Shown: positions 4,068 through 47,030 of the stretch, piece by piece
How positions within the stretch are numbered: the first letter of the stretch is position 1
Layout: each line of letters starts with the position of its first letter
From: Candidatus Hodarchaeota archaeon
GTDB taxonomy: Archaea; Asgardarchaeota; Heimdallarchaeia; Hodarchaeales; Hodarchaeaceae
DNA length: 64,000 bases
Direction: 5' to 3'
NCBI GenBank assembly: GCA_016839785.1
Contig: JAEOTQ010000177.1
Span: 30,550-94,549 of the forward strand
The notes under the pieces: generated by a model
Seen by the model: only the letters and a program-made list of their open reading frames with translations
What the model was told of the DNA's origin: nothing
The model's database searches: none
Position numbers and translations under genes: made by a program

Positions 4068-4187
4068 AATAATTACCTTAAAACGCCTTTTTTACATGAA
4101 TTCTATTCTTACTATCATTTCGTTCATTATTAAGTAGCTTGATTACTTTGATAATTCTTTGTCTTTTGTCATATCTTCCATAAAACT

Positions 4188-5353: not shown

Positions 5354-5779
5354 TCTAGAGAATACGGGAAGACCACTTCGCTTATTTAATAAAAGAATTT
5401 CTCGAACATTGAGGTGGATACCAGCAATATCTTCTTGATTCTTATCTCTATCATCTATTTCCCGCTGGACGATAATTTATAACACCTCAATCTCTTTATA
5501 ATCATGATACTTCATAGTAATTCCAATGAAGCAAAAGTTCTTACTTCGCATTTTGGTAGTATTGCTCCTTCAATTATAACCTATCTAAATAAAACAAGCT
5601 TTCATAATAAATAGAAATACGGTAACGAAAATGGAAAAATTAGTAAAAAAATAGTTTTAGAATGAATTTCGGAGTCTTCTAACTTAAAATCTGTGTAAAG
5701 TGATTGAGAATTTCCGCACACTAAGTCGACGCTTAACCTGATTAAGAATTATATATTTGAGCAAAAAATCTTATCAAAT

Positions 5780-6880
5780 TCATCCATAGCGGTTGTAACA
5801 ATAATCAACTATAATTTCAGGAATTTTATGTAAAGGTGCTACACGATCAACTAAGTTGCCCTCAATAACTTTCTTTGGCATCCCATAAATAACACAGGTG
5901 GATTCATGTTCAGCAATGATATTCCCTTTAACGGCCTTTATGCTCTTTGCACCATCAAATCCATCCTTCCCCATACCTGTAAGGACAATCCCTACAACGT
6001 TTTCGCCGTACACCTTGGCTGCAGAAGTAAAAGTTACATCAGCTGAGGGTATCAGAAAGTTAATCTTTGGTCCTTTGTACATATTGAACCTTTTTCCCTC
6101 TTGAATCGCACAATGTTTTCCTCCTGGAGCTATATATACCTTATTAGGTCGAACTAACTCTCCGTCATCAGGAATAACTATATTTAAATGAGGATTTTCA
6201 TTTTTTAATCCCTCTACCCAACGATTTACCATTTCTTCAACCATATGTTGAATTATTACAATAGGAGGAAACTTTGAGGGAATTTTGGGGAGAATAAGAC
6301 GAATTGCACGAGTTCCACCAGTCGAGGATGCTATTACAAATAGTCTATCTTGAAATTTCTTTAGCCCTTTCTTTGGTTTTCTGGCTGCAATAGGTTCTTC
6401 TTTCAAGTGGTACTCAAGATCAAACCCTTTTATCGCTTTTACCAAGTTCATATGAGAAAGAATGCTAATTTTACTCATCAATTCCTTTTCAAAGCGTTTT
6501 TTATCAAACGGGTCATCGCTTGGTTTTTTGACAAATTCTACATAGCCAGAATTTATTGCTGCCATTCCTAGATTTGAAAGGGATTTGTCAACCTCCTTCT
6601 TGCTTAAAGAAGAGACAATTACCACAGGCATAGGATCACGATCCATAATATGGCTAATTGTTTCGAATCCGTCCATTTCTGGGGGGGGACCCATCATAAT
6701 GTCCATAGTGATAATATCTGGTTTAAACTTGGGAATTTCCATTTTAGTCAAAGCAATCTCGCCAGTAGCTGCCTTTCCAACTACTTTGATTTTTCTATTA
6801 CCCCTTGTTAGGATATTTGAAATGGTTTGCCTATATAATGCTGAATCGTCGACTATCAGTACTCTAATTTCATCCTTCAT
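5780..6880 (-). CDS. cheB: Protein-glutamate methylesterase CheB (REC plus methylesterase)
   Basis: N-terminal receiver VLIVDDSALYRQ...ITMDIMM. C-terminal methylesterase motifs IASSTGGTRA, VIIQHM, GGKHCAIQ and VLTGMGKDG. Confidence 0.9.
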   Translation of the reverse strand: MKDEIRVLIVDDSALYRQTISNILTRGNRKIKVVGKAATGEIALTKMEIPKFKPDIITMDIMMGPPPEMDGFETISHIMDRDPMPVVIVSSLSKKEVDKSLSNLGMAAINSGYVEFVKKPSDDPFDKKRFEKELMSKISILSHMNLVKAIKGFDLEYHLKEEPIAARKPKKGLKKFQDRLFVIASSTGGTRAIRLILPKIPSKFPPIVIIQHMVEEMVNRWVEGLKNENPHLNIVIPDDGELVRPNKVYIAPGGKHCAIQEGKRFNMYKGPKINFLIPSADVTFTSAAKVYGENVVGIVLTGMGKDGFDGAKSIKAVKGNIIAEHESTCVIYGMPKKVIEGNLVDRVAPLHKIPEIIVDYCYNRYG

Positions 6881-7994: not shown

Positions 7995-9257
7995 GTGGAA
8001 AAGATGGGATATACAGTTATTGAAAAAATCATTGCTGATCATTCCTCCGAGGAAGTGGCCCCAGAAAAAATTGTCTGGTTAAATATTGATGTAAGATCCG
8101 CACGTGATTTTGGTGGTGCAAATGTAGTCAAAAATCTTGAGAAAAACTATCCAGGGGAATCTCATGTTGCTGACCCAACGAAGACGTTCTTTACATTCGA
8201 TTGTGTCGTTCCAGCTAACAATTTAGGATATGCTGAAAATCAACAAGTAGCCAGGGTATTTGCTCGAAAGAATCTACCCCGAAATAATTTGTACGATGTA
8301 AACGCAGGTATTGGTTCTCACATAATGATTGAAAAAGGTATTGCGGTTCCCAATAGCACCGTTGTTGGAACTGATTCGCATTTAAATATTCTTGGAGCAA
8401 TAGGAGCATTCGGACAAGGGATGGGTGATCAGGATATTGCCTTTACATTTAAAACAGGGAAAACTTGGTTCGAGGTTCCTTATACAATGCGAGTTACCAT
8501 TGATGGTACTCCAGCTAAGAATTCTTCAGCTAAAGATGTTACTTTAGGGGTGTTAGAGAAATTAGGTTCGAAAGGCGCATTAGGTAAATCAGTAGAATTT
8601 TACGGAGCTACTATCGATGCTCTCGATTTAGCAGGACGTATTACTCTTGCGAGTCAAGTCACTGAAATGGGCGGAATAATTGGATTAATTACTCCCAATA
8701 GCTCAATCATAGAATACTGTAAGGAAAGAAGTGGTCGTGATTTTCCGATTCACAAAGCTGATGACGATGTTGATTATGTAGAGGATATACATTATGATTT
8801 TGAAGGGATTGAGCCACGAATTGCTTTACCCCCGAATCCTGCCAATGTGAGACCAGTCGCGGAGGTTACAGGTATCAAAGTGGATTCTGTCGTCATTGCT
8901 TCCTGCACAAATGGCCGATACGAAGATTTTGCTATCGCAGCCAAGATTCTCAAGGGTAAAAAAGTTCATCAAGATGTGATGATGAAAGTTGTTCCTGCAA
9001 CCCAAGAAGTTTACGGTCAATTATTACAAAATGGGCTTGTGGATCTATTCTATCAATCTGGTGCTATTATAAGTAATCCCGGATGCGCAAGTTGTGCAAG
9101 TGGGCAAATTGGGATGACTGGTGACGGGGAAGTGCAGGTTACTACAGGAAATCGAAATTTTACAGGAAAGCAAGGTAAAGGAGATACTTATCTCGCATCC
9201 CCAGCTACTGCAGCAGCTTGTGCCCTTGCAGGAGAAATCGTTGTCCCGGAACTATAA
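7995..9257 (+). CDS. leuC: Aconitase-family dehydratase large subunit (3-isopropylmalate/homoaconitate dehydratase, LeuC/HacA type)
   Basis: 420 aa with GTDSH, the cluster-ligand region SCTNGR, and CASCASGQ. This is the typical short archaeal-type large subunit. The start may be GTG 7995 or ATG 8004. Confidence 0.85.
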   Translation: MEKMGYTVIEKIIADHSSEEVAPEKIVWLNIDVRSARDFGGANVVKNLEKNYPGESHVADPTKTFFTFDCVVPANNLGYAENQQVARVFARKNLPRNNLYDVNAGIGSHIMIEKGIAVPNSTVVGTDSHLNILGAIGAFGQGMGDQDIAFTFKTGKTWFEVPYTMRVTIDGTPAKNSSAKDVTLGVLEKLGSKGALGKSVEFYGATIDALDLAGRITLASQVTEMGGIIGLITPNSSIIEYCKERSGRDFPIHKADDDVDYVEDIHYDFEGIEPRIALPPNPANVRPVAEVTGIKVDSVVIASCTNGRYEDFAIAAKILKGKKVHQDVMMKVVPATQEVYGQLLQNGLVDLFYQSGAIISNPGCASCASGQIGMTGDGEVQVTTGNRNFTGKQGKGDTYLASPATAAACALAGEIVVPEL

Positions 9258-12469: not shown

Positions 12470-12838
12470 TTATTTATTTGTGTCTTTATACGGTCCTAGT
12501 TTACCTGAAACCATTTCGATTGGAAATCGTGATTCATTCTCAGAGAGTTTACTCCGAACAGCCGTAGCTATATCAATATTACAAGTATTGACCATACTTA
12601 GAAGATAAATAAGTACATCAGCTAATTCATCTTCCAGCGCCTTTTTCAAAGAAGGATCTTTATGTACGTTTTCCGATGCCTCTTCAGTTGTCACCCACTG
12701 GAATAATTCCATAATTTCAGCTGCTTCAATCGAAATTGACATTGCTAAATTTTTTGGGGTATGATACTTGTTCCAATCTCGTGTGTTAATGAAATCCGCA
12801 ACTAGCTCAGATAATTCTGTGAGGGTTGTTTCTGTCAT
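12470..12838 (-). CDS. MazG-like nucleotide pyrophosphohydrolase (all-alpha NTP-PPase)
   Basis: 122 aa with EAAEIMELFQW and ELADVLIYLL, the typical MazG/dCTPase-like acidic helices. Confidence 0.6.
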   Translation of the reverse strand: MTETTLTELSELVADFINTRDWNKYHTPKNLAMSISIEAAEIMELFQWVTTEEASENVHKDPSLKKALEDELADVLIYLLSMVNTCNIDIATAVRSKLSENESRFPIEMVSGKLGPYKDTNK

Positions 12839-12844
12839 GATTTT

Positions 12845-13795
12845 TTACTCCTTTGTCACTTCAATTCTGTATTGAACCTCAAATTTTTGGATATTAACAT
12901 ATTCTTGACCGTCTTCAGTGAAAGATTGACCACTTGGTCTAACAAACCTAAGCCGAAGTGTGTTCGAACTTTTATCAAACCCGATTTCATCCCATTTGTT
13001 AAGAAAATCCCCATATGCAAGAGATTTTAACGCAGAGGGCGAGCTTCGATCGATTTCGTCAGAGATGAATTCCTCTTCCTTAAATGGTACAAGTTGAGAT
13101 GGTTCCAATGGAATCTTCTTTTTTAGAGTTTCAGATACTCCCTCATAATAATTGAGAGTGGTTTTTATTTCCTCAGGATCGTAAAAAATTACAAAATAAT
13201 TTGGTAAAGGATTGATCCAACTTATAAACAAATCCAACGGAATTCCTGAATACGGTAACCTAAATTTTATAGTTCCATCAAGATTGACAATAAAAGGACT
13301 CCATGCTGACGTTTGAGGGTCATAGCTAATTGTTAACACATCTGAACTCATAGTTGAGCATAGTACTGTTGTAGTATTGGGAAGAGGAGGAGATACAAAT
13401 GATTTTGTACTAAGTGAGTAGAATTTTGTGATTATATCGAGTTCCTCTGTCACAAAGTATAAGCAGAGGATTTCACCCTTATATCCCCACGGAGCATAAT
13501 AGGAACGAATAAAAGAAGAATAATAGATAGGAAGAAAGAAATACTGATCCTCGAACGAATGGACATCTGTAATCTCAACTTCTCCCTCAAATATCGAGAT
13601 CTTCCACACATAATGAGCCATACGAATTTCCTCGACGGAATGAAAAACGAGGGAGAAATCAGAAGTTGGACTTTTAAATTCTAATTTTCCAGGCATAGTT
13701 TCAAAAGGAACGGGAATGGGTTCTCCTAAAGGTATTAGTTTCAACATGATTTTATTCCACAAGAAGTCATTACTAGCTAGAAAAAACTTTATCAA
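12845..13795 (-). CDS. Hypothetical protein
   Basis: 316-aa ORF with good coding periodicity and no recognisable motif. Confidence 0.4.
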   Translation of the reverse strand: MIKFFLASNDFLWNKIMLKLIPLGEPIPVPFETMPGKLEFKSPTSDFSLVFHSVEEIRMAHYVWKISIFEGEVEITDVHSFEDQYFFLPIYYSSFIRSYYAPWGYKGEILCLYFVTEELDIITKFYSLSTKSFVSPPLPNTTTVLCSTMSSDVLTISYDPQTSAWSPFIVNLDGTIKFRLPYSGIPLDLFISWINPLPNYFVIFYDPEEIKTTLNYYEGVSETLKKKIPLEPSQLVPFKEEEFISDEIDRSSPSALKSLAYGDFLNKWDEIGFDKSSNTLRLRFVRPSGQSFTEDGQEYVNIQKFEVQYRIEVTKE

Positions 13796-13834
13796 TTATC
13801 CTGTTGAACTTTTTCTCATTGGATTCGAGGTCGG

Positions 13835-14569
13835 ATGAGTCTCTCAGAAATTCCCTCTCTAAGAAGTAATGAAACTCTTCTACATAATAAAATTAAGTCG
13901 ATTTATGATAAAAATGAAAATGTGAAAACAGAAGTAACACAAAAAGTGAATGGAAAAAATTTTCGTTTTGATTTGTTAGATGACGATAAGACAATTATAT
14001 ACGAAATCCAGAGAGCGAGTTTCGGAGGGCGGTTTTCTCGGAAAATTCAAACCTTATTGGAATCAACCAAATATCGCATTAGAATAATACATCCCATCGT
14101 GCATAAACAAAAAATAACACGATTGAATGGAAATGACCATATTTCGACTTCATATCGGAATTTTTATTCTACTGAATATAATTTTTTTGATCAATTAGTT
14201 TACTTTAAAGTTAAATATCAAGATCGATTAGAATTCGATATTTTGGTGATTTATGAACATCTAATTAAGCAATTTGCTGGATATTATCAAAGAAGTGGAA
14301 GACGAAGATTCCAAACATTAAATCGTGATTTAGTCCGTGTTGATTCTATGAGTAAAATTAGAACTAAGCAAGATTTTTACAATTTCCTTCCAGAAGAATT
14401 ACCTTCTTGCTTCACAAACCAAGACCTACAAAATTCATTAAAGTTTAAGAAACAATCCCCGCGTAGTGGCCGATTGCCAGGGAAGATTACTTATTCAATG
14501 TGCCAATTAGGTCTTCTTGAACGGGTTGGAAAAAAAAGGAATGCGCATGTGTTTACACGACAACATTAG
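13835..14569 (+). CDS. Hypothetical protein (possible nuclease-like fold, weak)
   Basis: 244-aa ORF. The IIYEIQRASFGG segment is reminiscent of E-x-Q nuclease cores. This is speculative. Confidence 0.35.
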   Translation: MSLSEIPSLRSNETLLHNKIKSIYDKNENVKTEVTQKVNGKNFRFDLLDDDKTIIYEIQRASFGGRFSRKIQTLLESTKYRIRIIHPIVHKQKITRLNGNDHISTSYRNFYSTEYNFFDQLVYFKVKYQDRLEFDILVIYEHLIKQFAGYYQRSGRRRFQTLNRDLVRVDSMSKIRTKQDFYNFLPEELPSCFTNQDLQNSLKFKKQSPRSGRLPGKITYSMCQLGLLERVGKKRNAHVFTRQH

Positions 14570-15565: not shown

Positions 15566-16273
15566 TTGATAGAAGTGCAATATTCCTCCTCTGCTCCAAT
15601 AATTGAACTGAAAGCTATTAGTAAACACTTTAAAGTAGGTAAAGAGCGAATAGAATTATTTAAAGACCTAGAATTCAACTGTAACGAAAATGAATTCATT
15701 ATATTTACGGGACCAAGCGGTTGTGGGAAAACAACACTTCTACAAATAATTGCAGGGTTAACACGAGTCGAAAAGGGTATAGTACGTGTATATGATCATA
15801 ATATAATGGAATTTAATGAAGAGTCGCTTGCCTTATTTCGCTCCTCCACAATCGGCCTAGTCTTCCAGATGGGACATTTAATAGAAACACTTACAGTGCT
15901 AGAAAATATCCTACTTCCCGTGGAATTGGCCCAAAGAGAGGAAAAGGATTATGAAAAACGTGCCTGGGAGTTATTAGAGGAATTTTACATGTCTCATCGT
16001 GCTCATTCACTTCCACGTATGATTAGTGGGGGGGAATATCAACGAGTAGCGTTTATTCGTGCGTTAATTCTAGATCCTCACATTTTACTGGTCGATGAAC
16101 CAACAGCCAATCAAGATGAAAGAACTAAGGTAGCAATTTTTCAGAAACTTGCACAGCTTAAAGGTAAAAAAACCATTCTAGTTGTTACGCACTCTCGTGA
16201 CATATTTCCACATGCTGATCGAATTTTTATCCCTGATAATTTGAAACTGTGTGAAAAAAATGGGATCGCTTAA
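15566..16273 (+). CDS. ABC transporter ATP-binding protein (MacB/LolD/FtsE-like)
   Basis: Walker A GPSGCGKTT, signature LSGGEYQRV, Walker B ILLVDEPT, and H-loop VTHS. Confidence 0.9.
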   Translation: MIEVQYSSSAPIIELKAISKHFKVGKERIELFKDLEFNCNENEFIIFTGPSGCGKTTLLQIIAGLTRVEKGIVRVYDHNIMEFNEESLALFRSSTIGLVFQMGHLIETLTVLENILLPVELAQREEKDYEKRAWELLEEFYMSHRAHSLPRMISGGEYQRVAFIRALILDPHILLVDEPTANQDERTKVAIFQKLAQLKGKKTILVVTHSRDIFPHADRIFIPDNLKLCEKNGIA

Positions 16274-18077
16274 TATCGCTTGGAAGGATGTCATCAGGAA
16301 ACCAGAGAGATCCTTTCTCTATATCTTCACTCACTCATTACTAGTCGCTACAGGCATTAATATCTTCCTTATATCTTCTGTCTTACAATTACAAGTTGAT
16401 CAAGCCACACAAATGTTTAATGGGTCAATCATCAATATTATGGATATGTATCTCCTTTTTTTAACAGGTTTTTCTTTTTTGGCCTCAATTATTTCTGCAA
16501 GTGTTCTTGCATCATTACTTGCAGTATCCAGAATGAAGGATTTAGCAGTTTTTCAGTCTCTGGGTGGTACTTTCAAGCAGATCCAACGAATTCCCATTGC
16601 AGAAATTTTCATAATTACTACTATTGGGGGAATCGTAGGGATTATAGAGGGATCTGTTTTGGGAGCGCTGCTCCTTTCTTTTTTGGATTTTTCAATTTTA
16701 CAAATACCTATTTGGGAATTTATACTTTTCTCCTTTTTATTTTTGTTTTTTTCTGCAGTGGGAACTTATTTTGCCGCAGGATTTGTTATTAACGTATTTA
16801 TAAGAAGAAAATTTCGTGAAATCTTAGATAGTCAATATTTTTTAACACCTACACACCCTAAGAGAATTTGGGGAATATCGACTAAGAAAAGAACTGCTTT
16901 TCGACTGGGCCATCTTCTCCAAACAAGGGCTCGATTGGTATCACGTATTATGATACTAGGTATTCTTGTTCTTACATTGATCTCCTCATTCGGAATATTA
17001 GGGGGATCTATTATACAAAGCACCACGGACACCTACGTGAAACGAGGATATGGAGGAGAGGATGTAGTAATTATTACACCTTCTCCTTCATTTTCTGATA
17101 TCATAAAGAGGTGTTATGATCCTCATGAAAAATTAACCTTTAATCCTTCTCCAAATTTTGCGAATGAATTTATCCCAGGAAGTTTCCTTAGTAATCTACC
17201 AAGTGACACAATTTTTGAATCAAGATTACTTGTTTTAGGTACTATTCGCTTGTTGGAAGCTCTTCGAGAAGTAAATGACGTTATATCAGCTGTTAATAGT
17301 ACATTTAATAGTTATATTTGGGGAGTCGATTCATCATTCTCAAGTATTTTCAACTATTATTCAGTCGGTGGTTCATCTGATTATCCAACCGAGGATTTCA
17401 TGTTTATGGCTGATGGATATCACCAGTTCGTTATCCATCAGGGAGTGATGCAGGTAATCCCTAAAACAGCGAATGGGGATGTACTTGAACTTCAAAGATT
17501 TAAGGTCAGTAAAGTCTTGATGGATCCATTTGCCAAGGGATATTGCACATATTTACATATTAACTCATTATCAGAGTTGAGCTGGAATATAACTAATACA
17601 CAGAGAAATGTTGTATTCATCAAAAACCCAAATGAGGATATTCTTAATCTAATCAATATTTCAGGGTTTGATTATTTCTATTTGAATTCTTATGGGAAAA
17701 TTTACCAATCTTTTAGTGCTCAATTCTGGTTAGTCTCAAATATCGTTCTTCTCCCAGTTGTTCTATCTATAGGCTTATCCTTGGTTGCCTTTTCAAGTTT
17801 ATATATCTTAATTCTAGAAAAGGATCTTTACATCATGCGAGTCCTTGGATGTAAGGCCAAAGTAATGAAACGAGTTATAATTTGGATAAACATCTTTGTT
17901 AGTCTTCCAGGCATTTTTTCGGGTCTTTTACTTGGATTTAGCTCCTCTTATTCACTATTAATTCCTCAACCCGTTCTTCCATCCTTTTCTTCTTGGTTTT
18001 TGCTTATTTCATCCTTTCTGTTGATAACGATACTCGTAGAACAATACATCAGGCGATTCGTTAGATCTATGAGATGA
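16251..18077 (+). CDS. ABC transporter permease, FtsX/MacB-like
   Basis: 608 aa with N-terminal and C-terminal TM bundles separated by a large extracytoplasmic domain. Its start overlaps the stop of the ATPase gene. Confidence 0.7.
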   Translation: MKKMGSLNIAWKDVIRKPERSFLYIFTHSLLVATGINIFLISSVLQLQVDQATQMFNGSIINIMDMYLLFLTGFSFLASIISASVLASLLAVSRMKDLAVFQSLGGTFKQIQRIPIAEIFIITTIGGIVGIIEGSVLGALLLSFLDFSILQIPIWEFILFSFLFLFFSAVGTYFAAGFVINVFIRRKFREILDSQYFLTPTHPKRIWGISTKKRTAFRLGHLLQTRARLVSRIMILGILVLTLISSFGILGGSIIQSTTDTYVKRGYGGEDVVIITPSPSFSDIIKRCYDPHEKLTFNPSPNFANEFIPGSFLSNLPSDTIFESRLLVLGTIRLLEALREVNDVISAVNSTFNSYIWGVDSSFSSIFNYYSVGGSSDYPTEDFMFMADGYHQFVIHQGVMQVIPKTANGDVLELQRFKVSKVLMDPFAKGYCTYLHINSLSELSWNITNTQRNVVFIKNPNEDILNLINISGFDYFYLNSYGKIYQSFSAQFWLVSNIVLLPVVLSIGLSLVAFSSLYILILEKDLYIMRVLGCKAKVMKRVIIWINIFVSLPGIFSGLLLGFSSSYSLLIPQPVLPSFSSWFLLISSFLLITILVEQYIRRFVRSMR

Positions 18078-35468: not shown

Positions 35469-36521
35469 TTGTCTTCACTTATTACTAGCTTCTGGCAGGA
35501 TCGAGGTTTAAAATTTAAACTATTAGCGGTGATGTTCGTTGTCACTGCCATTCCCTTAACTTTACTTATGACTGTTTATAGTTTTTCAATCAATAATGTT
35601 ATTGATACTATAAAAACTGAATTTAGCGGAAATGCAGCCATAGGTGAATTCGTAGAAGCCGAATTTGTTGACATGATGTGGACTTCGGGTCTCGTCTATA
35701 TAACTGGTTTATTTGGAGGTTTAGCAATAGTTTTTCTATATAGTCGATCTTTAACAAAGCCTATCTTAGATCTAGCTGAGTCAGCGGATGAAATAGCTAA
35801 CAGAGATCTCTCATTGGATAAATATTCAAGCTTAGAGAACCCACGTGGAGATGAAATTGGAAAAGTACAACATTCATTCCTTTTGGCAATCAAGAACCTT
35901 CGTAATATAATTTCTACAAATCAAGGATCAGCAACAAATCTCGCTGCATCTACGCAAGAAATTGCTGCTACTGCGGAAGAGGTGAGTGCTTTAACCGAGG
36001 AAATTGCGGCAACGATTCAAGCGATTTCTGTTGGTGCTTCAAAACAAAGTGAACTAGTCTCTAACGGTTTAAAAAACCTCGATGATATGGCTAAAGTTGT
36101 AGATTCCGCATTAATGAATATAAATAAAACGCTAGAGGTCATCGAGGAAATTGCTAACCAAACAAACTTACTGGCCATTAATGCGGCAATTGAAGCAGCA
36201 CGAGCTGGGGAATTTGGGAAAGGATTTGATGTTGTAGCGGACAATGTAAGACGATTATCCGAAGAAACACGAGTAAATGCAGTCGAAATTTCCCAAATAA
36301 CGCTTGAAATCACTTCTCAAATCAGAATCTCAACTGCAAGTCTTCGTGACCATCTTCAGGAACTTGCTGTCCAAGCTGAAGAGTATAGCGCATCAAGTGA
36401 GGAAGTGGCCGCGAGTACTGAAGAACAGTCCAGTGCAGTAAGTCAGTTGACATCTTCCTTACAAGAACTCACAAATTTGAGCACACAAATGACAGAATCC
36501 ATCGATCAATTCAATCTTTGA
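35469..36521 (+). CDS. Methyl-accepting chemotaxis protein (short MCP: 2 TM, HAMP, signalling domain)
   Basis: Two N-terminal TM helices, then the conserved signalling hairpin [21 protein letters not shown]...[30 protein letters not shown]. Confidence 0.85.
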
Positions 36522-37353: not shown

Positions 37354-40300
37354 ATGAGAGACTTTTCTGAGGATAATCACTCGAATGCAGATTATTTGAA
37401 GAAGAGGTTACACCAAGGTCGACTGTTGATTCAATCGATAAAAACTCGCAAGTTACGGTCTGAACTAAAGTCAATCAAATCTCATACACGAACTAATATT
37501 CGCTCACAAACTCAAAAACTTACTAAATTTTCATGGCAAAGGAGTACCAGACAAAGAGGAGCAGGAATCATGCTCTCCTGGGGATTAGCCAGACGAAATG
37601 TCACTAGATCGAAATATCGTTCTTTTTTGTTGATTTTTGGTATTATGCTAACGGTTGCTCTTGAAACAGGTATTGTAATATCTGTTGATACGCTCTATGA
37701 TGATTTTGTTTTTGACCATCGAAATCAAAACTACACCGATATTACAGTCCATCCTATTAATTGGCAGAATCTCGCGAATATGACGCAAATGGCACAGAAA
37801 GTTGCAAAAACCCCAGGGGTGGTAAGAGCCAGTCCAGTATACTATACAAACATAGATAATCTATTTGGTCAAGCAGTCAAGAAGAGTAACATACTGATTT
37901 ATGGAATTGACTCAAAAACACACCCTGATTTTCGACGAATCAATATTACATTAGGTGAACGGAGTTTAAAGAATAATCGGATGATTATTTCCGATACATT
38001 GTATGATCAAGGTGGGTTAACTATAGGTGAGAGTGTTAATCTTAATGATTTAGGCCCCGAATACAAATCCCAAGAGATTACTCTCGGCGGAGTAATGGAT
38101 GATGAACCATTTTTCGGGAATAAAATCGGTTATGCATTCATTCTTCTTGATATAGAGCTTCTATATAATATTGTTTATGAAAATCAACTTATTTCTTTGT
38201 TATCAAGTGAAATTGATGTAGAAATCAATAGTATAGTAGATATCAAGAAAATTAGTGAAAATATCAAAGATGCTGTAGGGTTAAATTACTATGTTTTTTC
38301 AGAAAAAGATATTTCAGAGATTGAAGCATCAGGAATACGTGCCTATCAAACTGCAATGAATTTAGTTATCATGGCGTCATTCGTTGTGGAATTTTTGTTT
38401 ATTACGAATGTTCTCGCAATTTCAATTCGTGATAGATCAAAAGAATTCGGTATCATAAGAGCTATTGGGGGGAAAGCATACCAATTGATTGAATCTGTTG
38501 CATATGAAATCCTCATTTATTCCGCTATTGGCTGTACTATAGGAGTAGGAGTTGGAATTGCCCTTTCTTCTGTGTTAACAGGTGTAATGGATGATTATTA
38601 TGTGGGTCTTGAGTTTCAACAGCTTTCTATTCATACTACCTCACTTATTGTGACATATCTCTCAGGAGCCCTTGTTGCATTAATTTCGGGTCTTTATCCC
38701 ATCTTTTTAGCTATTTCCATGCCTGTAGTTCAAAATATTCATTCAAGGATGAGATCTGGATCATCTTTTGATACTTTAACTAATTCTTGGAAATATACCG
38801 TAGGGACTGGATTTCTTCTAGCCCTTGTTGGTTTTATTCTGCAATATTATGTAGGCCCTTCGCGCTTTCTTGATTTTGAAATATTATCTCTCCATTTTGT
38901 TGCAGTTCTTATGATTTTTATTGGAACTGTATTTCTAGAAATAGGAATCCTTGTGTTTCTACCAAAAATTGCCATGAAATTATTAATTGGATTCAGTTTC
39001 ATTACTCGTACGATTTCCACGAGAAATATTGCACGTGAATTTCAAAAATCGCTTTTTACAATAATGACGTCTGCTATGGCATTAACTTTCATAATTGTTG
39101 TCGGATTGATTAGTGCTGCTGTTATATCTGGTGTACCTGCATATTATGAAAATCAATGGGGAGCAATTGATCTTGTAGCGGAGACAAGAGATGCTGAACT
39201 CCTTCCTACAAGTACCACAAACCGAATAGATGGTATGAGTGGAGTTGTTCGGAGTTCATTCATACAAGAAGTGAGAACTGAGGTTGATAACACATCTAGT
39301 TATGTTTATGGTGTCGATCCCTTCAAGTATGTTTATTTTAGCGAACCACCTGTTGATAGTTTATCATCCTTCCAACCGTATGAACTACTTAGTCAATCAA
39401 ATGTTAACAGGACGAATGGTGTAATTTCTCATATCCTATATCAAAAACTTCGAGTTCCGCTAGGATCTAATATTTCTTTAAAGATCGCAACTAATTCAAC
39501 CGTAAATAATTCAATTGTAAAGAATTCAACCGTAGGTAATTCAACCGTAAAAATTAGAACAGTAAATGTAACTCTGACCGCAGTAGTTAAAGCCAATATA
39601 TTCTTGGGGAATGGGGAGTATTTATATATTCCCAGTGCACAATTTCGTGAATTTTTCAACTCGACTGTTGCAAAGTGGTTTCTATGTGATGTGGAGGAGG
39701 ATGAGGTTCAAAGAGTAAAGAGGAATCTAGAGTTTAATTTTCCAGAATTTAAAGAAGATGGCGTAGTTTCCATTACTTTTTTCACAGATATGATGAGAGA
39801 GAGTTTGATCTTTCAGTCAGCGATTTTCCAAGTCTTATTTTTTGAATCATTTATTTTAGCTGCCATTGCTCAATTTGTTTGCATTTTAGTATCAACTTTG
39901 CGAATGGAGCGTGAAATTGGAATAATGCGAAGCTTGGGATTGAATCGGAGAGGAGTTTTCGGAATATTTATGACAGAATCAATTGCATTAGGCATTTCAG
40001 CATTATTTGTTGGATTGTTTGATGGAATACTCGGTGCTGTACTGCTTGCGGATTATATCTCTGCATCGATTCCAATTTTTGTCTCGTTCCCTGCCACAAG
40101 TTTAATCATCTGGATGAGTATTTCCTTTCTAATAACAATTCTTAGTACCCTTCTCCCTTCATATCGATCAAGTCGTAAAAATATTGTCGCAACGATCTCT
40201 GGGCGTCCTATGGTAAAGGGATATGTCGATAAAGATCCATACCGTTTAAGATCGGAATTAAGAGCGGTTGAAAGCCCATGGCTTACCTCATATGGTTCTT

Positions 40301-41577
40301 CAAATCCAACTAATCCCTTTATGCATTATTCAGATGACCCTCTATCAGAATCCAGTCGAGTACGGAGAAGACAAAATCAAGTATCGTCTGCAATATCTCA
40401 AAGTAGTATCCTTCGGTTTATTCGGAATAATATTCTACCAGTTCAGACGATATTTTTGTTATTAATGGCAATAATTACGTTCAATTATATTCTTGATGAA
40501 AACATAATAATGCGAGGATTAAATATTTTTGACACCTTTATTAGATTTACCATGTCCTTAACAGAATATATTGATCCTCAGTATCAAGTTACATTCCTTA
40601 ACATTAATCCAGTTCTGGTTATTGTTGGACTTGCTGCTATAACCCCCATTGCGCATTATTTAACATACAAACAAGGCCCCGAATCTCTCCTTATTTCTGT
40701 TCTTGGAAGTATATTCTGGGCTTTCCTAGGGATAATAGTTATTATTTTTTCAATGTTAGTAACGGCTTCCCTTGTAATGATAATTCTAATACCAGTTCAG
40801 GAGAGAATTGGAGATTTTTCGACTCCAAATACGGTAGTGCTACTCGAATTTTCTAAACTTGGCTCATTACTTCTAGTTGGTGTCATTTTCTTTTATCTCT
40901 TTCAAAAATTTTGGTGTTTTATGACTATCCGTGGGATAGAACCAGAATTATCATACAGAGGACATCTTACTCTTGTTAAAACATATGGTTCAAGGGGAAA
41001 TATGGGATTCATATTTTTGCTTTTAGGTCATATCTTACTCCAAACTGTCTTATACTCAATTGCTGGCCCATTTTCATTGTCCGATCCGATATATCCCGAT
41101 CTATCCACAACCCCTCCGATTGGACCAATTGAATTCTTAATTTATTCTATTTATGAAGTTGGATATTACCTCTTACTAATCATATATACCATTGTACATT
41201 TTGGAAAATCGGTTAATTTAGCAAGGAGTGGTTCAGTCCAATATAAACCTGTTAAAGTGCAAATCCCTGCAGAAACTATTGTTAAAAGTCAAGAACTGGC
41301 AAATAAAATTCTAGTTGACAATGTAAAAGGCATTTCTCTAAACAAAAAAGGTATTCAACTATTTAGTGAGGTGATCAATGGCCAGAAACTTCTTTTTTTC
41401 CAAGAAAACGATAGTAAAATACCAGTAGCAATGAACTATGCACTCCATTTTCCAAAAGAGTACGTACCATTATCCGAAGAACATCCTACTCAAATAAAAG
41501 TACCAAATGCTGAACAAATCGAGCGGTTCGTACATCTAATGCAAGATTTCGAATTTAGAGAAGATGTAACTTCATAA
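37354..41577 (+). CDS. Giant (1407 aa) FtsX/MacB-like permease-domain membrane protein with an extra C-terminal polytopic region and a conserved cytoplasmic tail
   Basis: Two FtsX-like units (TM, large extracytoplasmic domain, then 3 TM with the conserved RxxE(F/I)G(I/T)(I/M)RAIG motif, seen as RSKEFGIIRAIGG and REIGIMRSLG). Additional TM helices in residues ~1000-1300. There is no adjacent ABC ATPase. Confidence 0.6.
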   Translation: MRDFSEDNHSNADYLKKRLHQGRLLIQSIKTRKLRSELKSIKSHTRTNIRSQTQKLTKFSWQRSTRQRGAGIMLSWGLARRNVTRSKYRSFLLIFGIMLTVALETGIVISVDTLYDDFVFDHRNQNYTDITVHPINWQNLANMTQMAQKVAKTPGVVRASPVYYTNIDNLFGQAVKKSNILIYGIDSKTHPDFRRINITLGERSLKNNRMIISDTLYDQGGLTIGESVNLNDLGPEYKSQEITLGGVMDDEPFFGNKIGYAFILLDIELLYNIVYENQLISLLSSEIDVEINSIVDIKKISENIKDAVGLNYYVFSEKDISEIEASGIRAYQTAMNLVIMASFVVEFLFITNVLAISIRDRSKEFGIIRAIGGKAYQLIESVAYEILIYSAIGCTIGVGVGIALSSVLTGVMDDYYVGLEFQQLSIHTTSLIVTYLSGALVALISGLYPIFLAISMPVVQNIHSRMRSGSSFDTLTNSWKYTVGTGFLLALVGFILQYYVGPSRFLDFEILSLHFVAVLMIFIGTVFLEIGILVFLPKIAMKLLIGFSFITRTISTRNIAREFQKSLFTIMTSAMALTFIIVVGLISAAVISGVPAYYENQWGAIDLVAETRDAELLPTSTTNRIDGMSGVVRSSFIQEVRTEVDNTSSYVYGVDPFKYVYFSEPPVDSLSSFQPYELLSQSNVNRTNGVISHILYQKLRVPLGSNISLKIATNSTVNNSIVKNSTVGNSTVKIRTVNVTLTAVVKANIFLGNGEYLYIPSAQFREFFNSTVAKWFLCDVEEDEVQRVKRNLEFNFPEFKEDGVVSITFFTDMMRESLIFQSAIFQVLFFESFILAAIAQFVCILVSTLRMEREIGIMRSLGLNRRGVFGIFMTESIALGISALFVGLFDGILGAVLLADYISASIPIFVSFPATSLIIWMSISFLITILSTLLPSYRSSRKNIVATISGRPMVKGYVDKDPYRLRSELRAVESPWLTSYGSSNPTNPFMHYSDDPLSESSRVRRRQNQVSSAISQSSILRFIRNNILPVQTIFLLLMAIITFNYILDENIIMRGLNIFDTFIRFTMSLTEYIDPQYQVTFLNINPVLVIVGLAAITPIAHYLTYKQGPESLLISVLGSIFWAFLGIIVIIFSMLVTASLVMIILIPVQERIGDFSTPNTVVLLEFSKLGSLLLVGVIFFYLFQKFWCFMTIRGIEPELSYRGHLTLVKTYGSRGNMGFIFLLLGHILLQTVLYSIAGPFSLSDPIYPDLSTTPPIGPIEFLIYSIYEVGYYLLLIIYTIVHFGKSVNLARSGSVQYKPVKVQIPAETIVKSQELANKILVDNVKGISLNKKGIQLFSEVINGQKLLFFQENDSKIPVAMNYALHFPKEYVPLSEEHPTQIKVPNAEQIERFVHLMQDFEFREDVTS
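39493..39567 (+). repeat. 5 x 15-bp in-frame tandem repeat (aattcaaccgtaaat-like) encoding NSTV(N/K/G) units
   Basis: The units aattcaaccgtaaat, aattcaattgtaaag, aattcaaccgtaggt, aattcaaccgtaaaa and attagaacagtaaat are seen directly. They encode N-S-T sequons in an extracytoplasmic loop of the giant protein. Confidence 0.8.
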
Positions 41578-41669
41578 TTATACCTGAATGATGAAATTCT
41601 CATATTAAGTATTCAGACAAGTATGTTTTTTAGAATCAATCTACTTTATCTGCATTAAACGTGTAAATT

Positions 41670-41722
41670 AATACAAAAATCTCTTGAATTCTTTAGTAAA
41701 TTAGTTGAACCTCATTGGAAAA
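41670..41722 (+). promoter_or_regulatory. Conserved leader/promoter element, copy A (paralog of 46020..46072)
   Basis: tacaaaaatctcttgaa...gtaaa(t/a)tagttgaa(c/t)ctcattggaaa is near-identical at the two loci, although the flanking coding sequence has diverged to ~70% identity. Confidence 0.35.
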
Positions 41723-41923
41723 TTTCACAACATTGATAAGAAAAATTTATTAAAATCATACCTCCTTCTGATAGGAGCCACACTAATTTGGGGAGGAAGC
41801 TGGCCCCTTGGCAGGTGGTTGGTGTCTGAGGAAGTGGGAGGAGAAACGATTCCCCAATCAATGATTGCTATTGTGAGGTATTTTATCGTAATTTGGGCAT
41901 TTATCTTGGTATTTTCTTTGTAA
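41705..41923 (+). pseudogene. Truncated 5' fragment (72 codons) of an EamA/DMT transporter paralog
   Basis: Its translation (KSYLLLIGATLIWGGSWPLGRWLVSEEVGGETIP...) aligns with the N-terminus of the intact 321-aa EamA protein at 46065..47030, then ends at a TAA stop after the first TM helix. Confidence 0.5.
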
Positions 41924-42040
41924 GAGTTAATAAAAAACACAAAATCATTAGGAAGCGATTTTTCCAAAAGGTTAGATAATTCAGAGATTGTATATATACC
42001 TAAAGAAATCACACATTTGAAATTAAGTAAATTTCTCTAG

Positions 42041-42712
42041 GTGACTAATTTGGTAATTGAGAGGCTTTACGAAGCGTTGAAGAAATCTGTAGAAGAATAT
42101 AAACCCGAAAAGGCTAAGAAGATTACTAAAGAACTCTTAGAAGCCCAGGTTGACCCCTTAAAAGTGTTAGATGAAGTACTGAATCCAACAATGGAAGAAA
42201 TAGGGGAGAAATTTGATAATATGGACATATTTTTACCTGATCTTATGGGTGCTGCTGAAGCAATGCAAGCGGCTACCTCCATCTTAACAGAACAGATTAA
42301 GAAAAGTTCCACTAAACCCACTGAATCGAAAGGGAAAGTTGTACTAGGAACAGTACTTGGAGATATTCATGAAATCGGGAAAAATATTGTTAAAATTATG
42401 CTAGAAACCTCAGGATTTGAAATATTTGATTTAGGAAAAGATGTTCCTTCTCTTAAGTTCATTGAAAAAGCTGAAGAAGTTAATGCAGATGTGATAGCTT
42501 TATCAGCACTTATGACAACTACAATGCATTCTCAGAGAGAAGTTATTGAACTATTAGAAGCGTTAGGAAAGCGTGATAATTATATAGTTCTTGTTGGTGG
42601 TAATCCAACTAGTGAAAATTGGAAAAAAGAGATAGGAGCTGATGGATGGGCTGAAACTGCAGTCGAAGCTACAAAGCTCATAACGAAAATGATTAGCGAG
42701 AAGGTGAGATAG
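42041..42712 (+). CDS. Methyltransferase cognate corrinoid protein (B12-binding, MtmC/MtbC/MttC-like)
   Basis: N-terminal helical cap, then the B12-binding signature GDIHEIGKNIV (DxHxxG), then SAL and LVGG. GTG start. Confidence 0.85.
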   Translation: MTNLVIERLYEALKKSVEEYKPEKAKKITKELLEAQVDPLKVLDEVLNPTMEEIGEKFDNMDIFLPDLMGAAEAMQAATSILTEQIKKSSTKPTESKGKVVLGTVLGDIHEIGKNIVKIMLETSGFEIFDLGKDVPSLKFIEKAEEVNADVIALSALMTTTMHSQREVIELLEALGKRDNYIVLVGGNPTSENWKKEIGADGWAETAVEATKLITKMISEKVR

Positions 42713-44098
42713 ATGGGCACTCCTCCTTGGCGTATCAATGAAGTACTAGATAGAGCACAAAATGGACCAATCTGCTTAGAAAAGGATTTTGATTCTAACC
42801 TCTTTGTACCCGAACTTAAGAGAGTAATTAAGGAGTATGATATTTGTTTTGATAAATTGACACCCGTACCTTCTGATGATACTCTAGCAGATAGTATTTG
42901 GAAAGCCGCTATGGATTTTTACCTCACGGTGGGAACTCTTTGCACTGATACTTATCGTAGAATTGTTTTTACAGAAAATGAAATAAAGGAAGCTCTAGGA
43001 AATTTTCCTGGAAGGTTCACATTGGGCTTTGGACGTGATTCAAGAGAAATTACTGGTAGACAAATCGAAGATAAACGAAGACCTTTCTGTCTCTTTTCAC
43101 CTGACATCACATGTGACGAAGATCTTTTTGTTCCCATGAGTATGGCATATTTACAGGAACCTCTAGCTGATGGTGTTTGTGCTCCAATTCTTGATGAAAT
43201 TGAGGGTATGTCAATTCGATCTGGTTCTCCATCCGAAATAAAGGGATCAGTCGCGCATGCCATGATGTTTAGAGAGGCTGCAAGACGAGTTGGTCGTCCT
43301 GGAATTTTTCTTAAGAGTGTAGGAACCGCAGAGTCTGACGCAGCTCAAATCGCAGCCAGCAATCCTGAATGGGGAGAAAGATTAACTGATGGACGATTTG
43401 TGGCTAGTGTAACAGAACTGAAAGTGGATAATTCACTCTTGAACAAAATGGTACATTTTCATACATATGGTTGTTTTGTAGGAGCACTTACGGGTCCTAT
43501 TTTTGGAGGATTTGCTGGGGGCCCTGAAGGTACTGCTATTGTTGGCCTTGCTTATCATTTACAAGGATTACTTGTGAATCAAGCACATTTCTTAAATTAT
43601 TTTCCGTTTCACTTGAAACACACTTGTAATACAATGCGTGAGCTTCTTTGGGTAATCTCTATCACCTATCAAGCCTTATCTCGGAACAGTAATTTAATCT
43701 CTCTGTCTAATGGATTTACTGCAGCTGGACCATGTACCCCCATGGTCTTAAGAGAGGCCGCAACTCACTCACTTGTAAGTGTTGTTTCCGGTTCTAATCT
43801 TTGGGAAATAGCTGTCGCTAAGAATAGGAATAAGAACTTCGCCACACCCATGGAAGCTAGGATTGCCTGTGAAGTCGGTTGTGGAGCAGCAAAAGAAAGG
43901 ATTTCAAGAAGTGATGCGAATGAGATTGCGCTAGCTCTTCTTAAAACTTATGAAGAAGATATCGAGAACGCACCACTAGGGAAGAGCTTTCGTGATTGCT
44001 ATAATATACGAAAGATTAAACCTTCAGTAGAATATATGGATCTCTTCAATAGAATGAAAAAAGAACTAAAGGACAATGGTGTTCCATTCGTATATTAA
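42713..44098 (+). CDS. MtmB-family (monomethylamine:corrinoid methyltransferase-like) protein without pyrrolysine
   Basis: Blocks shared with Methanosarcina MtmB as I remember it: CTDTYRRIVFTENEI, GRPG, PIFGGFAGGPEGTAIVGLAYH, AAGPCTPMVLREAA, TPMEARIACEV, APLGKSFRDCYNIRKIKPSVEYM...KELKDNGVPF. The ORF is continuous with no in-frame TAG. The stop of the corrinoid gene abuts this ATG. Confidence 0.75.
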   Translation: MGTPPWRINEVLDRAQNGPICLEKDFDSNLFVPELKRVIKEYDICFDKLTPVPSDDTLADSIWKAAMDFYLTVGTLCTDTYRRIVFTENEIKEALGNFPGRFTLGFGRDSREITGRQIEDKRRPFCLFSPDITCDEDLFVPMSMAYLQEPLADGVCAPILDEIEGMSIRSGSPSEIKGSVAHAMMFREAARRVGRPGIFLKSVGTAESDAAQIAASNPEWGERLTDGRFVASVTELKVDNSLLNKMVHFHTYGCFVGALTGPIFGGFAGGPEGTAIVGLAYHLQGLLVNQAHFLNYFPFHLKHTCNTMRELLWVISITYQALSRNSNLISLSNGFTAAGPCTPMVLREAATHSLVSVVSGSNLWEIAVAKNRNKNFATPMEARIACEVGCGAAKERISRSDANEIALALLKTYEEDIENAPLGKSFRDCYNIRKIKPSVEYMDLFNRMKKELKDNGVPFVY

Positions 44099-44333
44099 CG
44101 TGCTTTCCTAATTCAAATTTGACCATATTCAGGTTCTATCTAGTTACATAAGATAATTACATTAAACCGTTTCACAATGTCTACAAAGATCTTCTCATCT
44201 TATTTGTGAAATATTTTCAGCAATATTTGTTGCATATGTTACTCAAAGGATCACTCGACAACCTGGATACAAAAGCATTCAGAAGAAATCTGAATGTCTA
44301 ATTGAACACACTTCGAAGACGTTCCAAATCTTA

Positions 44334-45782: not shown

Positions 45783-45947
45783 GATTCAATTGAGATACAT
45801 ATGATTTATACCTTTCATTTCACAAATGAGTATACAGTATTATCCGAAGATCTTAAAACTAAAGTAAAAGTCCCAAATGCTGATCAAATACAACGATTCA
45901 TGCATCTAATGAATGACATAGAGTTTACACAAGAAACGTCTATTTAA
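45783..45947 (+). CDS. Short ORF whose ~55-aa C-terminal module is paralogous to the tail of the 1407-aa protein
   Basis: MIYTFHFTNEYTVLSEDLKTKVKVPNADQIQRFMHLMNDIEF aligns with MNYALHFPKEYVPLSEEHPTQIKVPNAEQIERFVHLMQDFEF. The track's upstream part (45573..) overlaps the glycoprotein gene in another frame and is probably not coding. Confidence 0.3.
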   Translation, partial: DSIEIHMIYTFHFTNEYTVLSEDLKTKVKVPNADQIQRFMHLMNDIEFTQETSI

Positions 45948-46019
45948 AGACACAAAAATGACAGACAAATGACATTTTTTCTACAACACTTATTTTGTAC
46001 TGCCATATCAAAGGAAATA

Positions 46020-46072
46020 ACTACAAAAATCTCTTGAAATTTCAAGTAAAATAGTTGAATCTCATTGGAAAG
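46020..46072 (+). promoter_or_regulatory. Conserved leader/promoter element, copy B
   Basis: See 41670..41722. Confidence 0.35.
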
Positions 46073-47030
46073 CACCCAAAACGTAGAAAGAAAATATGAA
46101 CTGAAATCATACCTCCTTCTGATATTAGCCACGCTAATTTGGGGAGGAAGCTGGCCCTTAAGCAGATGGTTAGTCTCCGAGGAAGTAGGTGGTGAAACTA
46201 TTCCACCTTTAATGGTTGGGATCTTGAGGTATTTCATAGCTATTTGGGTTTTTTTCTTTTTATTACGATGGCGTGAGGGTACAATTAACTTTCCTGCTGT
46301 AACCGACCACTGGAAATCTATATTTCTAATGGGGTTGACTTCTGTAACCATTTACCAAATTGGTTTTTTATATGGAGAATATTATACAGCTGCAAGTGAT
46401 GCAAGTCTAATTGTGGCAACAAATCCAATCTGGGTCTTCATATTATCTGGATTCTTTCTGGGTGAAGGTTTTGGATGGAAAAAGGCAACAGGTGTCCTAT
46501 TAGCATTTTTTGGGGTCTTATTCGTTGTAGGATTTTCACCCAATGTAGATGTCCCAAATCGATTTCTAGGCACTCTCTTCATCCTTTTTGCTGCATTAGG
46601 TTACTCTACATATACGATTATTTATCGACACTACATTAATGGATTTGATACACCCTCTGACAAACCCTCTTCACTTTTTGTTATCACATGGGTTTCTTTC
46701 TTCGGTTTTCTTATCACAACTCCAATTTCATTGGTTTTGAATCCAGAATATTTAAACCTTTTTCAATATTTGCAAATTCCCGAACGTATCTGGCTTGGAG
46801 CGGCGTATTTATCATTATTATCAACGGTGGTTGCTTATTGGTTATATTTAGAGGCCGTTAAGAGGTTGAATGCCAGCCGTGCTGCAATCTTCATAAATTT
46901 AGTACCCGTATGGGGGGTTTCATTATCAGTTCTTTTTTTGGGGGAATTACTTGATCCATTAGTCCATACTTCAGCCTTCATTTTAATTTCCTTGGGAATA
47001 TTCTTAGTGAATCGGAGTCAAAATGGGTAA
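46065..47030 (+). CDS. EamA/DMT-superfamily transporter (10 TM)
   Basis: 321 aa with two EamA-like halves (…ATLIWGGSWPL…; …FAALGYSTYTIIYR…). Apparent TTG start. Confidence 0.8.
   Translation: MESTQNVERKYELKSYLLLILATLIWGGSWPLSRWLVSEEVGGETIPPLMVGILRYFIAIWVFFFLLRWREGTINFPAVTDHWKSIFLMGLTSVTIYQIGFLYGEYYTAASDASLIVATNPIWVFILSGFFLGEGFGWKKATGVLLAFFGVLFVVGFSPNVDVPNRFLGTLFILFAALGYSTYTIIYRHYINGFDTPSDKPSSLFVITWVSFFGFLITTPISLVLNPEYLNLFQYLQIPERIWLGAAYLSLLSTVVAYWLYLEAVKRLNASRAAIFINLVPVWGVSLSVLFLGELLDPLVHTSAFILISLGIFLVNRSQNG

Follow-up and report, generated by a model that had tools for sequence, protein, structure and literature searches.

A corrinoid protein and a pyrrolysine-free MtmB-family methyltransferase encoded as a conserved gene pair in a Hodarchaeales genome

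We present here a pair of adjacent plus-strand genes from a 64,000-nucleotide (nt) stretch of a Candidatus Hodarchaeota archaeon genome (GenBank assembly GCA_016839785.1, contig JAEOTQ010000177.1, positions 30,550 to 94,549, forward strand; called the window below). One encodes an mtxC-like corrinoid (B12-binding) protein (42041..42712), and the other encodes a 461-amino-acid (aa) MtmB-family methyltransferase without pyrrolysine (Pyl), presumed to be the substrate:corrinoid methyltransferase (MT1) (42713..44098). Judged from their sequences and by analogy with characterized systems, the two genes probably constitute one half, the substrate-specific one, of a corrinoid-dependent methyl-transfer system, whose donor would be a quaternary or bulky N-methyl compound rather than Pyl-activated monomethylamine. 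A first-pass annotation, made from the sequence alone, had placed both open reading frames (ORFs) at these coordinates on the plus strand and had described a substrate:corrinoid methyltransferase with its cognate corrinoid protein, lacking Pyl, in an Asgard-like genome. That description stands. The pair is neither rare nor unrecognized and belongs to a widespread Pyl-free branch whose proteins are already named by NCBI.

The methyltransferase matches PF05369 (MtmB) with 325 bits against a cut-off of 25 (E value, 1e-96) over profile positions 3-449 of 450. The Methanosarcina barkeri MtmB chains 1NTH, 1L2Q, and 1TV2 match it with E values of about 1e-67 and 30% identity, and the motif blocks on which the homology was originally proposed (CTDT, GRPG, PIFGG.AGG, AGPCT.M, MEAR, and CY) are seen in the alignment with MtmB from the PDB. 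An AlphaFold2 model built from 68 homologs has a predicted local distance difference test score (pLDDT) of 95.9. Foldseek aligned this model with 1L2Q, 1NTH, and 1TV2 over 454 columns, with a template modeling (TM) score of 0.94-0.95 and a root mean square deviation of 1.5 Å; the next-ranked folds, MttB and MtgB, reached a TM score of about 0.5 at 11-15% identity. The family matches far exceed chance, and neither placement in an unrelated family nor a chance alignment was seen, PF05369 being matched end to end and the fold being that of MtmB. Profile match and predicted structure identify the protein as an MtmB-family TIM-barrel enzyme without Pyl.

Alignments place codon AAG (Lys201, 43313-43315, plus strand), followed by Ser202, in the column of M. 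barkeri MtmB Pyl202 (X202). The local sequence is GRPGIFL-K-SVGTAES, and the frame is uninterrupted, as annotated in the first pass. Lys201 sits at the end of barrel β-strand 199-201 according to the secondary structure of the model, and Pyl202 of MtmB has likewise been placed on a barrel β-strand (PMC9842639). No in-frame TAG occurs in the window gene or in its 120 nearest homologs. In these homologs, the column holds K (58), Q (47), V (7), A (5), H (2), or M (1), and at the DNA level it tracks lineage, with K in Asgard archaea, Q in Bathyarchaeia and Hadarchaeia, and V, I, or A in bacteria. Representatives from across the family show L, I, G, V, S, A, T, M, C, H, and other residues at this hypervariable column, and the preceding GRPG is conserved. 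Because the residue follows lineage, Lys201 is not a conserved catalytic stand-in for Pyl, and the weight originally put on Lys201/Ser202 is more than the column can carry. The notion that Lys or Gln here is a relic of an ancestral TAG, one substitution away, was ruled out by the lineage pattern and by Lys codons that are mostly AAA (19, against 6 AAG); it is also countered by the position of the clade, which is not sister to Pyl-MtmB.

The surroundings of this column differ from those in MtmB as well. MtmB residues E205, E229, E259, Q333, and Y335 align with G204, F229, L259, N333, and F335 of the window protein, and G204, F229, and L259 are kept in 112, 109, and 120 of 120 clade members, respectively. 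That positions 205, 229, and 259 are Glu in MtmB is visible in its sequence; Hao and coworkers are said to have reported in 2002 that these three residues surround Pyl. The barrel strand-end segments of the window protein are rich in Phe, Cys, and Met. Since the Pyl position is Lys, Gln, or Val by lineage and the three glutamates are replaced with Gly, Phe, and Leu, the pocket, as read from strand-end alignment columns rather than three-dimensional coordinates, appears to be hydrophobic, aromatic, and sulfur rich. The same substitutions argue that the methyl donor would not be Pyl-activated monomethylamine.

The first start codon of the corrinoid ORF, GTG at 42041, gives 223 aa, and the ORF ends with TAG at 42710-42712. 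It matches PF02607 (E value, 1e-18) and PF02310 (E value, 5e-27). The true start is most likely TTG at 42050, giving 220 aa, because a GGTGA Shine-Dalgarno-like element (42040..42044, plus strand) lies 5 nt ahead of this TTG and most related corrinoid proteins align from ORF residue 4. The closest relative (locus L002; related loci are cited by L numbers) has the same GGTGA-N5-TTG arrangement, and GTG 42041 falls inside the window's GGTGA element. A TATA-like element, TATATATA (41991..41998, plus strand), read off the sequence about 52 nt 5′ of the probable start, may be an archaeal promoter. The DxHxxG motif, whose histidine is the lower cobalt ligand, reads D108-I-H110-E-I-G113 (42362..42379, plus strand) and is also found in 76 of the 77 corrinoid proteins of related loci. 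Searched against the PDB, the protein matches MttC (7XCN_M; E value, 2.8e-47) and MtmC (E value, 3e-33); its nearest solved structures are MttC, Moorella and Desulfitobacterium corrinoid proteins, and MtmC, and it also matches the B12 domains of MetH. Its best NCBIfam matches all lie below their cut-offs (in parentheses), namely, MtgC at 210.5 (310), TIGR02370 at 204.6 (215.3), and MtbC at 193.8 (350). By its sequence, the protein is a member of the broad methylamine/betaine-type group, with a B12-binding_2 cap, a Rossmann B12-binding domain, and DxHxxG, and falls within no named specificity.

A word-indexed search with the window MtmB homolog returned 441 homologs, the best 120 of which are 53-93% identical to it, almost all about 460 aa long, and uninterrupted. 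The closest named ones come from Ca. Hodarchaeum mangrovi and from Hodarchaeales, Heimdallarchaeota, and “Promethearchaeota” metagenome-assembled genomes (MAGs); farther ones come from Bathyarchaeia and one bacterium. NCBI names the close homologs “monomethylamine:corrinoid methyltransferase.” For both genes, the closest homologs are from Hodarchaeales/Heimdallarchaeia MAGs (up to 93% and 82% identity), in keeping with the Asgard-like genome. Scanning one genome for each prokaryotic species yielded 284 relatives; locus comparisons use the best 80 of these, with at least 50% identity, and some neighbor counts cover 87 loci. Among the best 80, Asgard proteins (Hodarchaeales/Heimdall-, Sif-/Borrarchaeum, Hermod-, and Thorarchaeota) are 78-87% identical to the window protein; those of Bathyarchaeia, Hadarchaeum, and other Thermoproteota are mostly 56-75% identical, with one bin labeled Bathyarchaeota at 84%; and those of Anaerolineae/Chloroflexota, Thermoleophilia, Arenicellales, Desulfobacteraceae, Spirochaetales, Bipolaricaulota, and Neomarinimicrobiota are 50-56% identical. 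An exhaustive HMMER search of cluster representatives (E values up to 1e-3) returned 960 clusters at 50% identity. The top 150 representatives are mostly full-length, so Pyl-free proteins dominate the MtmB family.

All ORFs within 7 kb of the gene were clustered across the 80 loci. The sole recurrent neighbor is the corrinoid gene, found near the MtmB homolog in 63 of 80 loci, typically as the next gene upstream in the same orientation. In 44 loci no more than about 40 nt separate it from the MtmB homolog that follows, and most of these gaps measure 0-7 nt. An exact protein look-up found the same pair and gene order in six Hodarchaeales loci. These sequence comparisons show the pair kept as a unit over many archaeal and bacterial lineages. 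Three Hodarchaeales loci contain extra, clustered MtmB paralogs, including a “type B” paralog about 45% identical to the window protein. Type B genes lie, for example, at 12455-13834 in L001 and 7728-9116 in L006; a paralog is also present at 3956-5335 in L007, with further copies at 3069-4454 in L006 and 1239-2648 in L007. The L006 cluster also holds a major facilitator superfamily (MFS) transporter gene, a gene for a 574-aa B12-binding protein, and an octopine-dehydrogenase-like gene.

By analogy with MtmB/MtmC and MtqB/MtqC, the enzyme would bind a small methylated compound and offer its methyl group to the partner protein, whose Co(I) corrinoid would become CH3-Co(III). A second methyltransferase, encoded elsewhere, would then pass the methyl group on within the cell; the likeliest acceptor in Hodarchaeales is tetrahydrofolate or homocysteine and not coenzyme M. 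An ATP-dependent reductive activase, also encoded elsewhere, would rescue oxidized Co(II). Folate-type C1 enzymes and a fusion containing a homocysteine S-methyltransferase (PF02574) have been described in Heimdallarchaeia (PMC11193907), a stand-alone PF02574 gene accompanies the pair in six Anaerolineae loci (see below), and a glycine-cleavage P protein is encoded in the window. The least certain step is the identity of the donor. Taking MtqB and the non-Pyl MttB enzymes as models, we would guess at an N-methyl compound that is bulky or carries a permanent charge, for instance a quaternary amine, a betaine-like osmolyte, or an N-methyl amino acid derivative.

Several observations weigh against this assignment. 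No UroD/MtaA, MtrH, pterin-binding, or RamA gene is present among the larger ORFs of the window, in agreement with the first-pass annotation; apart from the PF02574 gene of six Anaerolineae loci, neither a second methyltransferase nor a RamA-type activase is a recurrent neighbor within 4-7 kb in the 80 related loci; and when 115 neighbor ORFs of Asgard loci were scanned with Pfam, none of the UroD/MtaA, pterin-binding, MtrH, and RamA families turned up in 3 or more loci. On these grounds, the three-component scheme is assumed for this organism. A non-Pyl MttB gene neighbors the pair in 8 loci. Other occasional neighbors encode components of a Liv-type ATP-binding cassette (ABC) transporter (11 loci), an enolase-superfamily enzyme and a thiamine pyrophosphate enzyme (5 loci each), an aromatic amino acid lyase (4 loci), and MFS transporters; together with CitMHS and Ogt/Ada genes, these vary by lineage and indicate no single substrate. 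Transfer of the MtqB substrate class is weak, since the retrieved Methanosarcinaceae non-Pyl homologs (from Methanohalobium, Methanococcoides, Methanolobus, and Methanohalophilus) share 25-29% identity with the window protein and do not include MtqB itself. Non-amine donors are also possible for the family, since in “Ca. Formimonas warabiya” grown on dichloromethane, the strongest induction of any protein was that of a non-Pyl member of the MtmB superfamily (PMC9768040).

Non-Pyl MtmB proteins are a long-known group with members throughout the Asgard archaea; MtqB of Methanococcoides methylutens Q3c, which demethylates tetramethylammonium and choline onto the corrinoid protein MtqC, is, according to its authors, the first for which a function was found (PMC13044021, Front Microbiol, March 2026). 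The view taken in the first pass that such proteins are essentially uncharacterized is thus out of date, and NCBI already annotates close homologs. That product name, the full-length PF05369 match, the near-identical fold, the small monomethylamine activity retained by MtqB (PMC13044021), and the fact that Lys is the parent amino acid of Pyl would all suit a true monomethylamine:corrinoid methyltransferase in which Lys201 or another residue plays the part of Pyl. We nevertheless consider this very unlikely: Lys is not kept in the clade, being replaced with Gln in Bathyarchaeia and Hadarchaeia and with Val, Ile, or Ala in bacteria at more than 50% overall identity; E205, E229, and E259 are all lost; the NCBI name is an automatic family-level label; and the catalytic part of Pyl is established to be the pyrroline imine, which plain lysine lacks (PMC9842639). 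The pair might instead be a functional equivalent of MtqB, acting on choline and/or tetramethylammonium. Common family membership, the corrinoid-then-methyltransferase order, the lack of Pyl, and the hydrophobic, aromatic, sulfur-rich pocket positions, as described for MtqB, are consistent with this, and choline is plentiful in sediments. We regard it as an outside possibility, given that no Methanosarcinales locus is among the best 80 genome relatives (at least 50% identity), that the Methanosarcinaceae non-Pyl homologs are as distant as stated above, and that a rough neighbor-joining tree groups the window protein with bacterial and type B Asgard representatives, on another major branch and far from Pyl-MtmB, near which MtqB is placed in the published phylogeny (PMC13044021). 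About 960 clusters at 50% identity and hypervariable pocket residues also suggest many specificities. Profile and single-sequence searches reached one Methanomassiliicoccales and two Methanosarcinaceae non-Pyl clades, and the corrinoid-then-methyltransferase order is absent from both Methanococcoides loci examined.

The remaining alternatives concern the fate of the methyl group and the gene boundary. The pair could be the half that donates the methyl group in a split methionine synthase dependent on cobalamin and independent of folate, in which the MtmB-like barrel would replace the methyltetrahydrofolate-binding barrel of MetH and a separate homocysteine S-methyltransferase would demethylate the corrinoid protein. 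The PF02574-containing fusion of Heimdallarchaeia (PMC11193907) and the match of the corrinoid protein to MetH B12 domains are compatible with this, as are six Anaerolineae loci (L054, L055, L057, L059, L061, and L068) with a stand-alone PF02574 homocysteine S-methyltransferase gene (291 aa, Zn-binding Cys motifs visible). In most of the six, this gene is divergent and directly upstream of the pair (e.g., 8256-9131, minus strand, in L068), and in four (L055, L057, L061, and L068), an MFS transporter gene lies downstream. The layout resembles a split methionine synthase and hints at a methionine-forming variant in that lineage only. The linkage is confined to one bacterial lineage, with 6 of 87 loci and 73-81% mutual identity, and is found neither in the window nor in any Asgard locus. 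MmuM, BHMT, and similar stand-alone PF02574 enzymes usually demethylate S-methylmethionine or betaine directly, with no corrinoid, and adjacency may mean a shared pathway rather than a shared corrinoid. For the window pair we judge a split synthase to be rather unlikely.

The gene boundary invites a further reading because the corrinoid stop TAG (42710-42712) directly abuts ATG 42713, as the first-pass annotation had it, and the 42041 and 42713 ORFs share one frame with this TAG alone between them. The TAG could be read as Pyl or read through to give a corrinoid-methyltransferase fusion, or a TAG within the MtmB gene could be hidden by a sequencing error; some Asgard archaea (Sifarchaeia) decode UAG as Pyl, yet they often use UAG as a stop (PMC9723677). 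Read-through fusion was rejected on the stops of relatives, varying frames and gaps, and the element ahead of the ATG. In the 44 loci with the corrinoid gene directly upstream, its stop is TGA in 23, TAA in 15, and TAG in 6, and frames vary in the pairs of related loci, with usual gaps of 0-7 nt. A GGTGA Shine-Dalgarno-like element (42703..42707, plus strand) stands 5 nt ahead of ATG 42713, with the upstream TAG within the spacer; in L002-L005, the corresponding GGTGA includes the upstream TGA stop. TAG terminates 9 of the 52 larger window ORFs, no pyl gene and no tRNA were found in the window, and Asgard Pyl machinery has been reported only in Sifarchaeia and as lost in Heimdallarchaeia (PMC9723677). 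Against a sequencing error, the MtmB ORF is unbroken in more than 100 homologs of independent assemblies. A fusion or hidden TAG is refuted so far as sequence comparison reaches and retains next to no credibility. The TAG-then-ATG junction is ordinary tight gene spacing, and the in-frame TAG, on this comparison, is coincidental.

Other neighbors were observed near the pair in related Asgard genomes. Genes for Ogt and an Ada-Zn/AraC regulator occur in 4 Asgard loci, directly downstream in L017 (11968-12570), L018 (11475-12050 and 11986-12567), and L024 and, some 7 kb downstream, in L002/L026 (18268-19336); this could reflect shared ancestry of close genomes or a link to methylating agents. In L009, L012, L014 (11525-12520), L021, and L023, the pair is followed by a gene whose 331-aa product bears CxC and CxC-type motifs and matches DUF6144 only below threshold, and in 4 of these 5 Asgard loci, a small S-adenosylmethionine-dependent methyltransferase gene comes next. 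At the Methanococcoides sp. LMO-2 locus (L090), uncalled stretches flanking a non-Pyl MtmB homolog (4417-5847 and 12556-13992, minus strand) match MttB and are presumably Pyl genes that gene calling overlooked; two EamA-like genes, each encoding 365 aa, occur at this locus as well.

The window itself has a truncated EamA/DMT transporter fragment upstream of the pair (41705..41923, plus strand; 72 aa, 71% identical over 62 aa to the intact protein) and an intact EamA/DMT gene downstream (46065..47030, plus strand; PF00892 E value, 5e-39). Both had been recognized in the first pass and are real. The accompanying suggestion that EamA supplies the substrate did not survive: as a dedicated transporter or conserved partner it was dropped, since only 1 of 87 related loci has an EamA homolog in the vicinity of the pair and the window copies belong to a local duplication. 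The duplicated block, comprising a permease 3′ end, a spacer, and an EamA 5′ end, is about 480 bp long; it has an upstream copy (41431..41913) and a downstream copy (45801..46264) that runs into the intact EamA gene. The copies (repeat families D1-D3, with the EamA fragment part of D1) are 72-86% identical and spaced about 4350-4370 nt apart, and the methyltransferase cassette sits between them. In the Ca. Hodarchaeum mangrovi loci L002-L005, a minus-strand gene for a 222-aa hypothetical protein follows the pair. A stretch at 44147..44242 (minus strand) is probably a decayed remnant of this gene, on a weak tblastn match (53% over 32 aa; E value, 1e-5) with stops interrupting the frame; no intact ORF is present at 44.1-44.65 kb of the window. 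The remnant and the duplicated flanks suggest that the pair kept part of its ancestral right-hand neighborhood and that the flanks were rearranged. Immediately upstream of the cassette, at 37354-41577, is the gene for a 1407-aa FtsX/MacB-type permease with a long C-terminal extension, the permease whose 3′ end is part of the duplicated block, and a second FtsX-domain protein is encoded at 16251-18077. The Asgard-like window also carries bacterial-type chemotaxis genes (1815-6880 and 35469-36521), encoding a 750-aa CheW-domain protein, CheB (methylesterase plus receiver), and a HAMP/methyl-accepting chemotaxis protein receptor.

Corrinoid-dependent demethylation of methylated amines governs the turnover of nitrogen-rich osmolytes, for example choline and betaines, in anoxic sediments and whether they become methane. 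The MtmB family is mostly Pyl free, and among the Pyl-free branches a substrate has been assigned to MtqB only. The window branch is widespread, strongly conserved, and multicopy in Hodarchaeales, the Asgard group closest to eukaryotes. Its substrate and acceptor, once identified, would give Asgard metabolic models a further route of methyl-group entry and shed light on why Pyl arose in so few branches of these families. The clade is kept at a minimum of 50% identity from Hodarchaeales to Anaerolineae, Thermoleophilia, and Arenicellales. A doubtful but consequential extension is that it serves as the entry enzyme for a single abundant methylated compound outside known corrinoid systems, with the methyl group passing to homocysteine or folate and not to coenzyme M; if that were true, the archaea closest to eukaryotes would possess in this pair a component of a split, folate-independent, B12-dependent methionine synthase or of a methylotrophy module. 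The finding overturns nothing and defines an orphan clade within the recognized Pyl-free MtmB members; its significance would be greater only if the clade feeds an unrecognized methyl donor into Asgard folate/methionine metabolism.

Compared with known systems, the window pair is like MtmB/MtmC of M. barkeri (1NTH, 1L2Q, and 3EZX) in its full-length Pfam family, TIM barrel, and adjacent DxHxxG corrinoid gene and in sharing the motifs GRPG, ELK, P..GG..GG, AGPCT.M, MEAR, and CY. It differs in its 30% identity, in Lys201 in place of UAG/Pyl, and in the replacement of Glu205, Glu229, Glu259, Gln333, and Tyr335 with Gly, Phe, Leu, Asn, and Phe; its host, unlike M. barkeri, is a nonmethanogen, and no MtbA-type coenzyme M methyltransferase or RamA is encoded nearby. 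The non-Pyl MttB systems (MtgB/MtgC/MtgA for glycine betaine, MtpB for proline betaine, MtcB for carnitine, and MtyB for γ-butyrobetaine) follow the same logic with quaternary amines. The window corrinoid protein scores best against MtgC-type models, and non-Pyl MttB genes stand beside the pair in the 8 related loci counted above. Non-Pyl MttB, however, belongs to PF06253 and not PF05369, with the distant fold likeness already given. The chloromethane dehalogenase CdmB (PMC13222342) was set aside as an unrelated member of the UroD superfamily.

Closer to the window protein is the Hodarchaeales type B paralog, a non-Pyl MtmB-family protein of the same major branch whose gene often divergently adjoins the same corrinoid gene. 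It differs in having GRPxIGFHNLLGTALS at the Pyl column, with a one-residue insertion, and none is encoded in the window. The characterized counterpart is MtqC/MtqB, in which MtqC (peg.949, 216 aa) is followed by MtqB (peg.950, 459 aa) (PMC13044021 supplement) and the predicted MtqB pocket is rich in sulfur-containing and aromatic residues (PMC13044021). The window pair resembles it, as far as its sequence tells, in having a non-Pyl methyltransferase with an aromatic, sulfur-containing pocket, encoded just after a corrinoid protein of some 216-220 aa. MtqB is the MT1 of a three-component system, to which the window protein is likened by analogy; unlike in the MtqB system, the acceptor in a nonmethanogen cannot be coenzyme M. 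The window protein is probably an MtqB/MtmB-type MT1 yet not an ortholog of MtqB.

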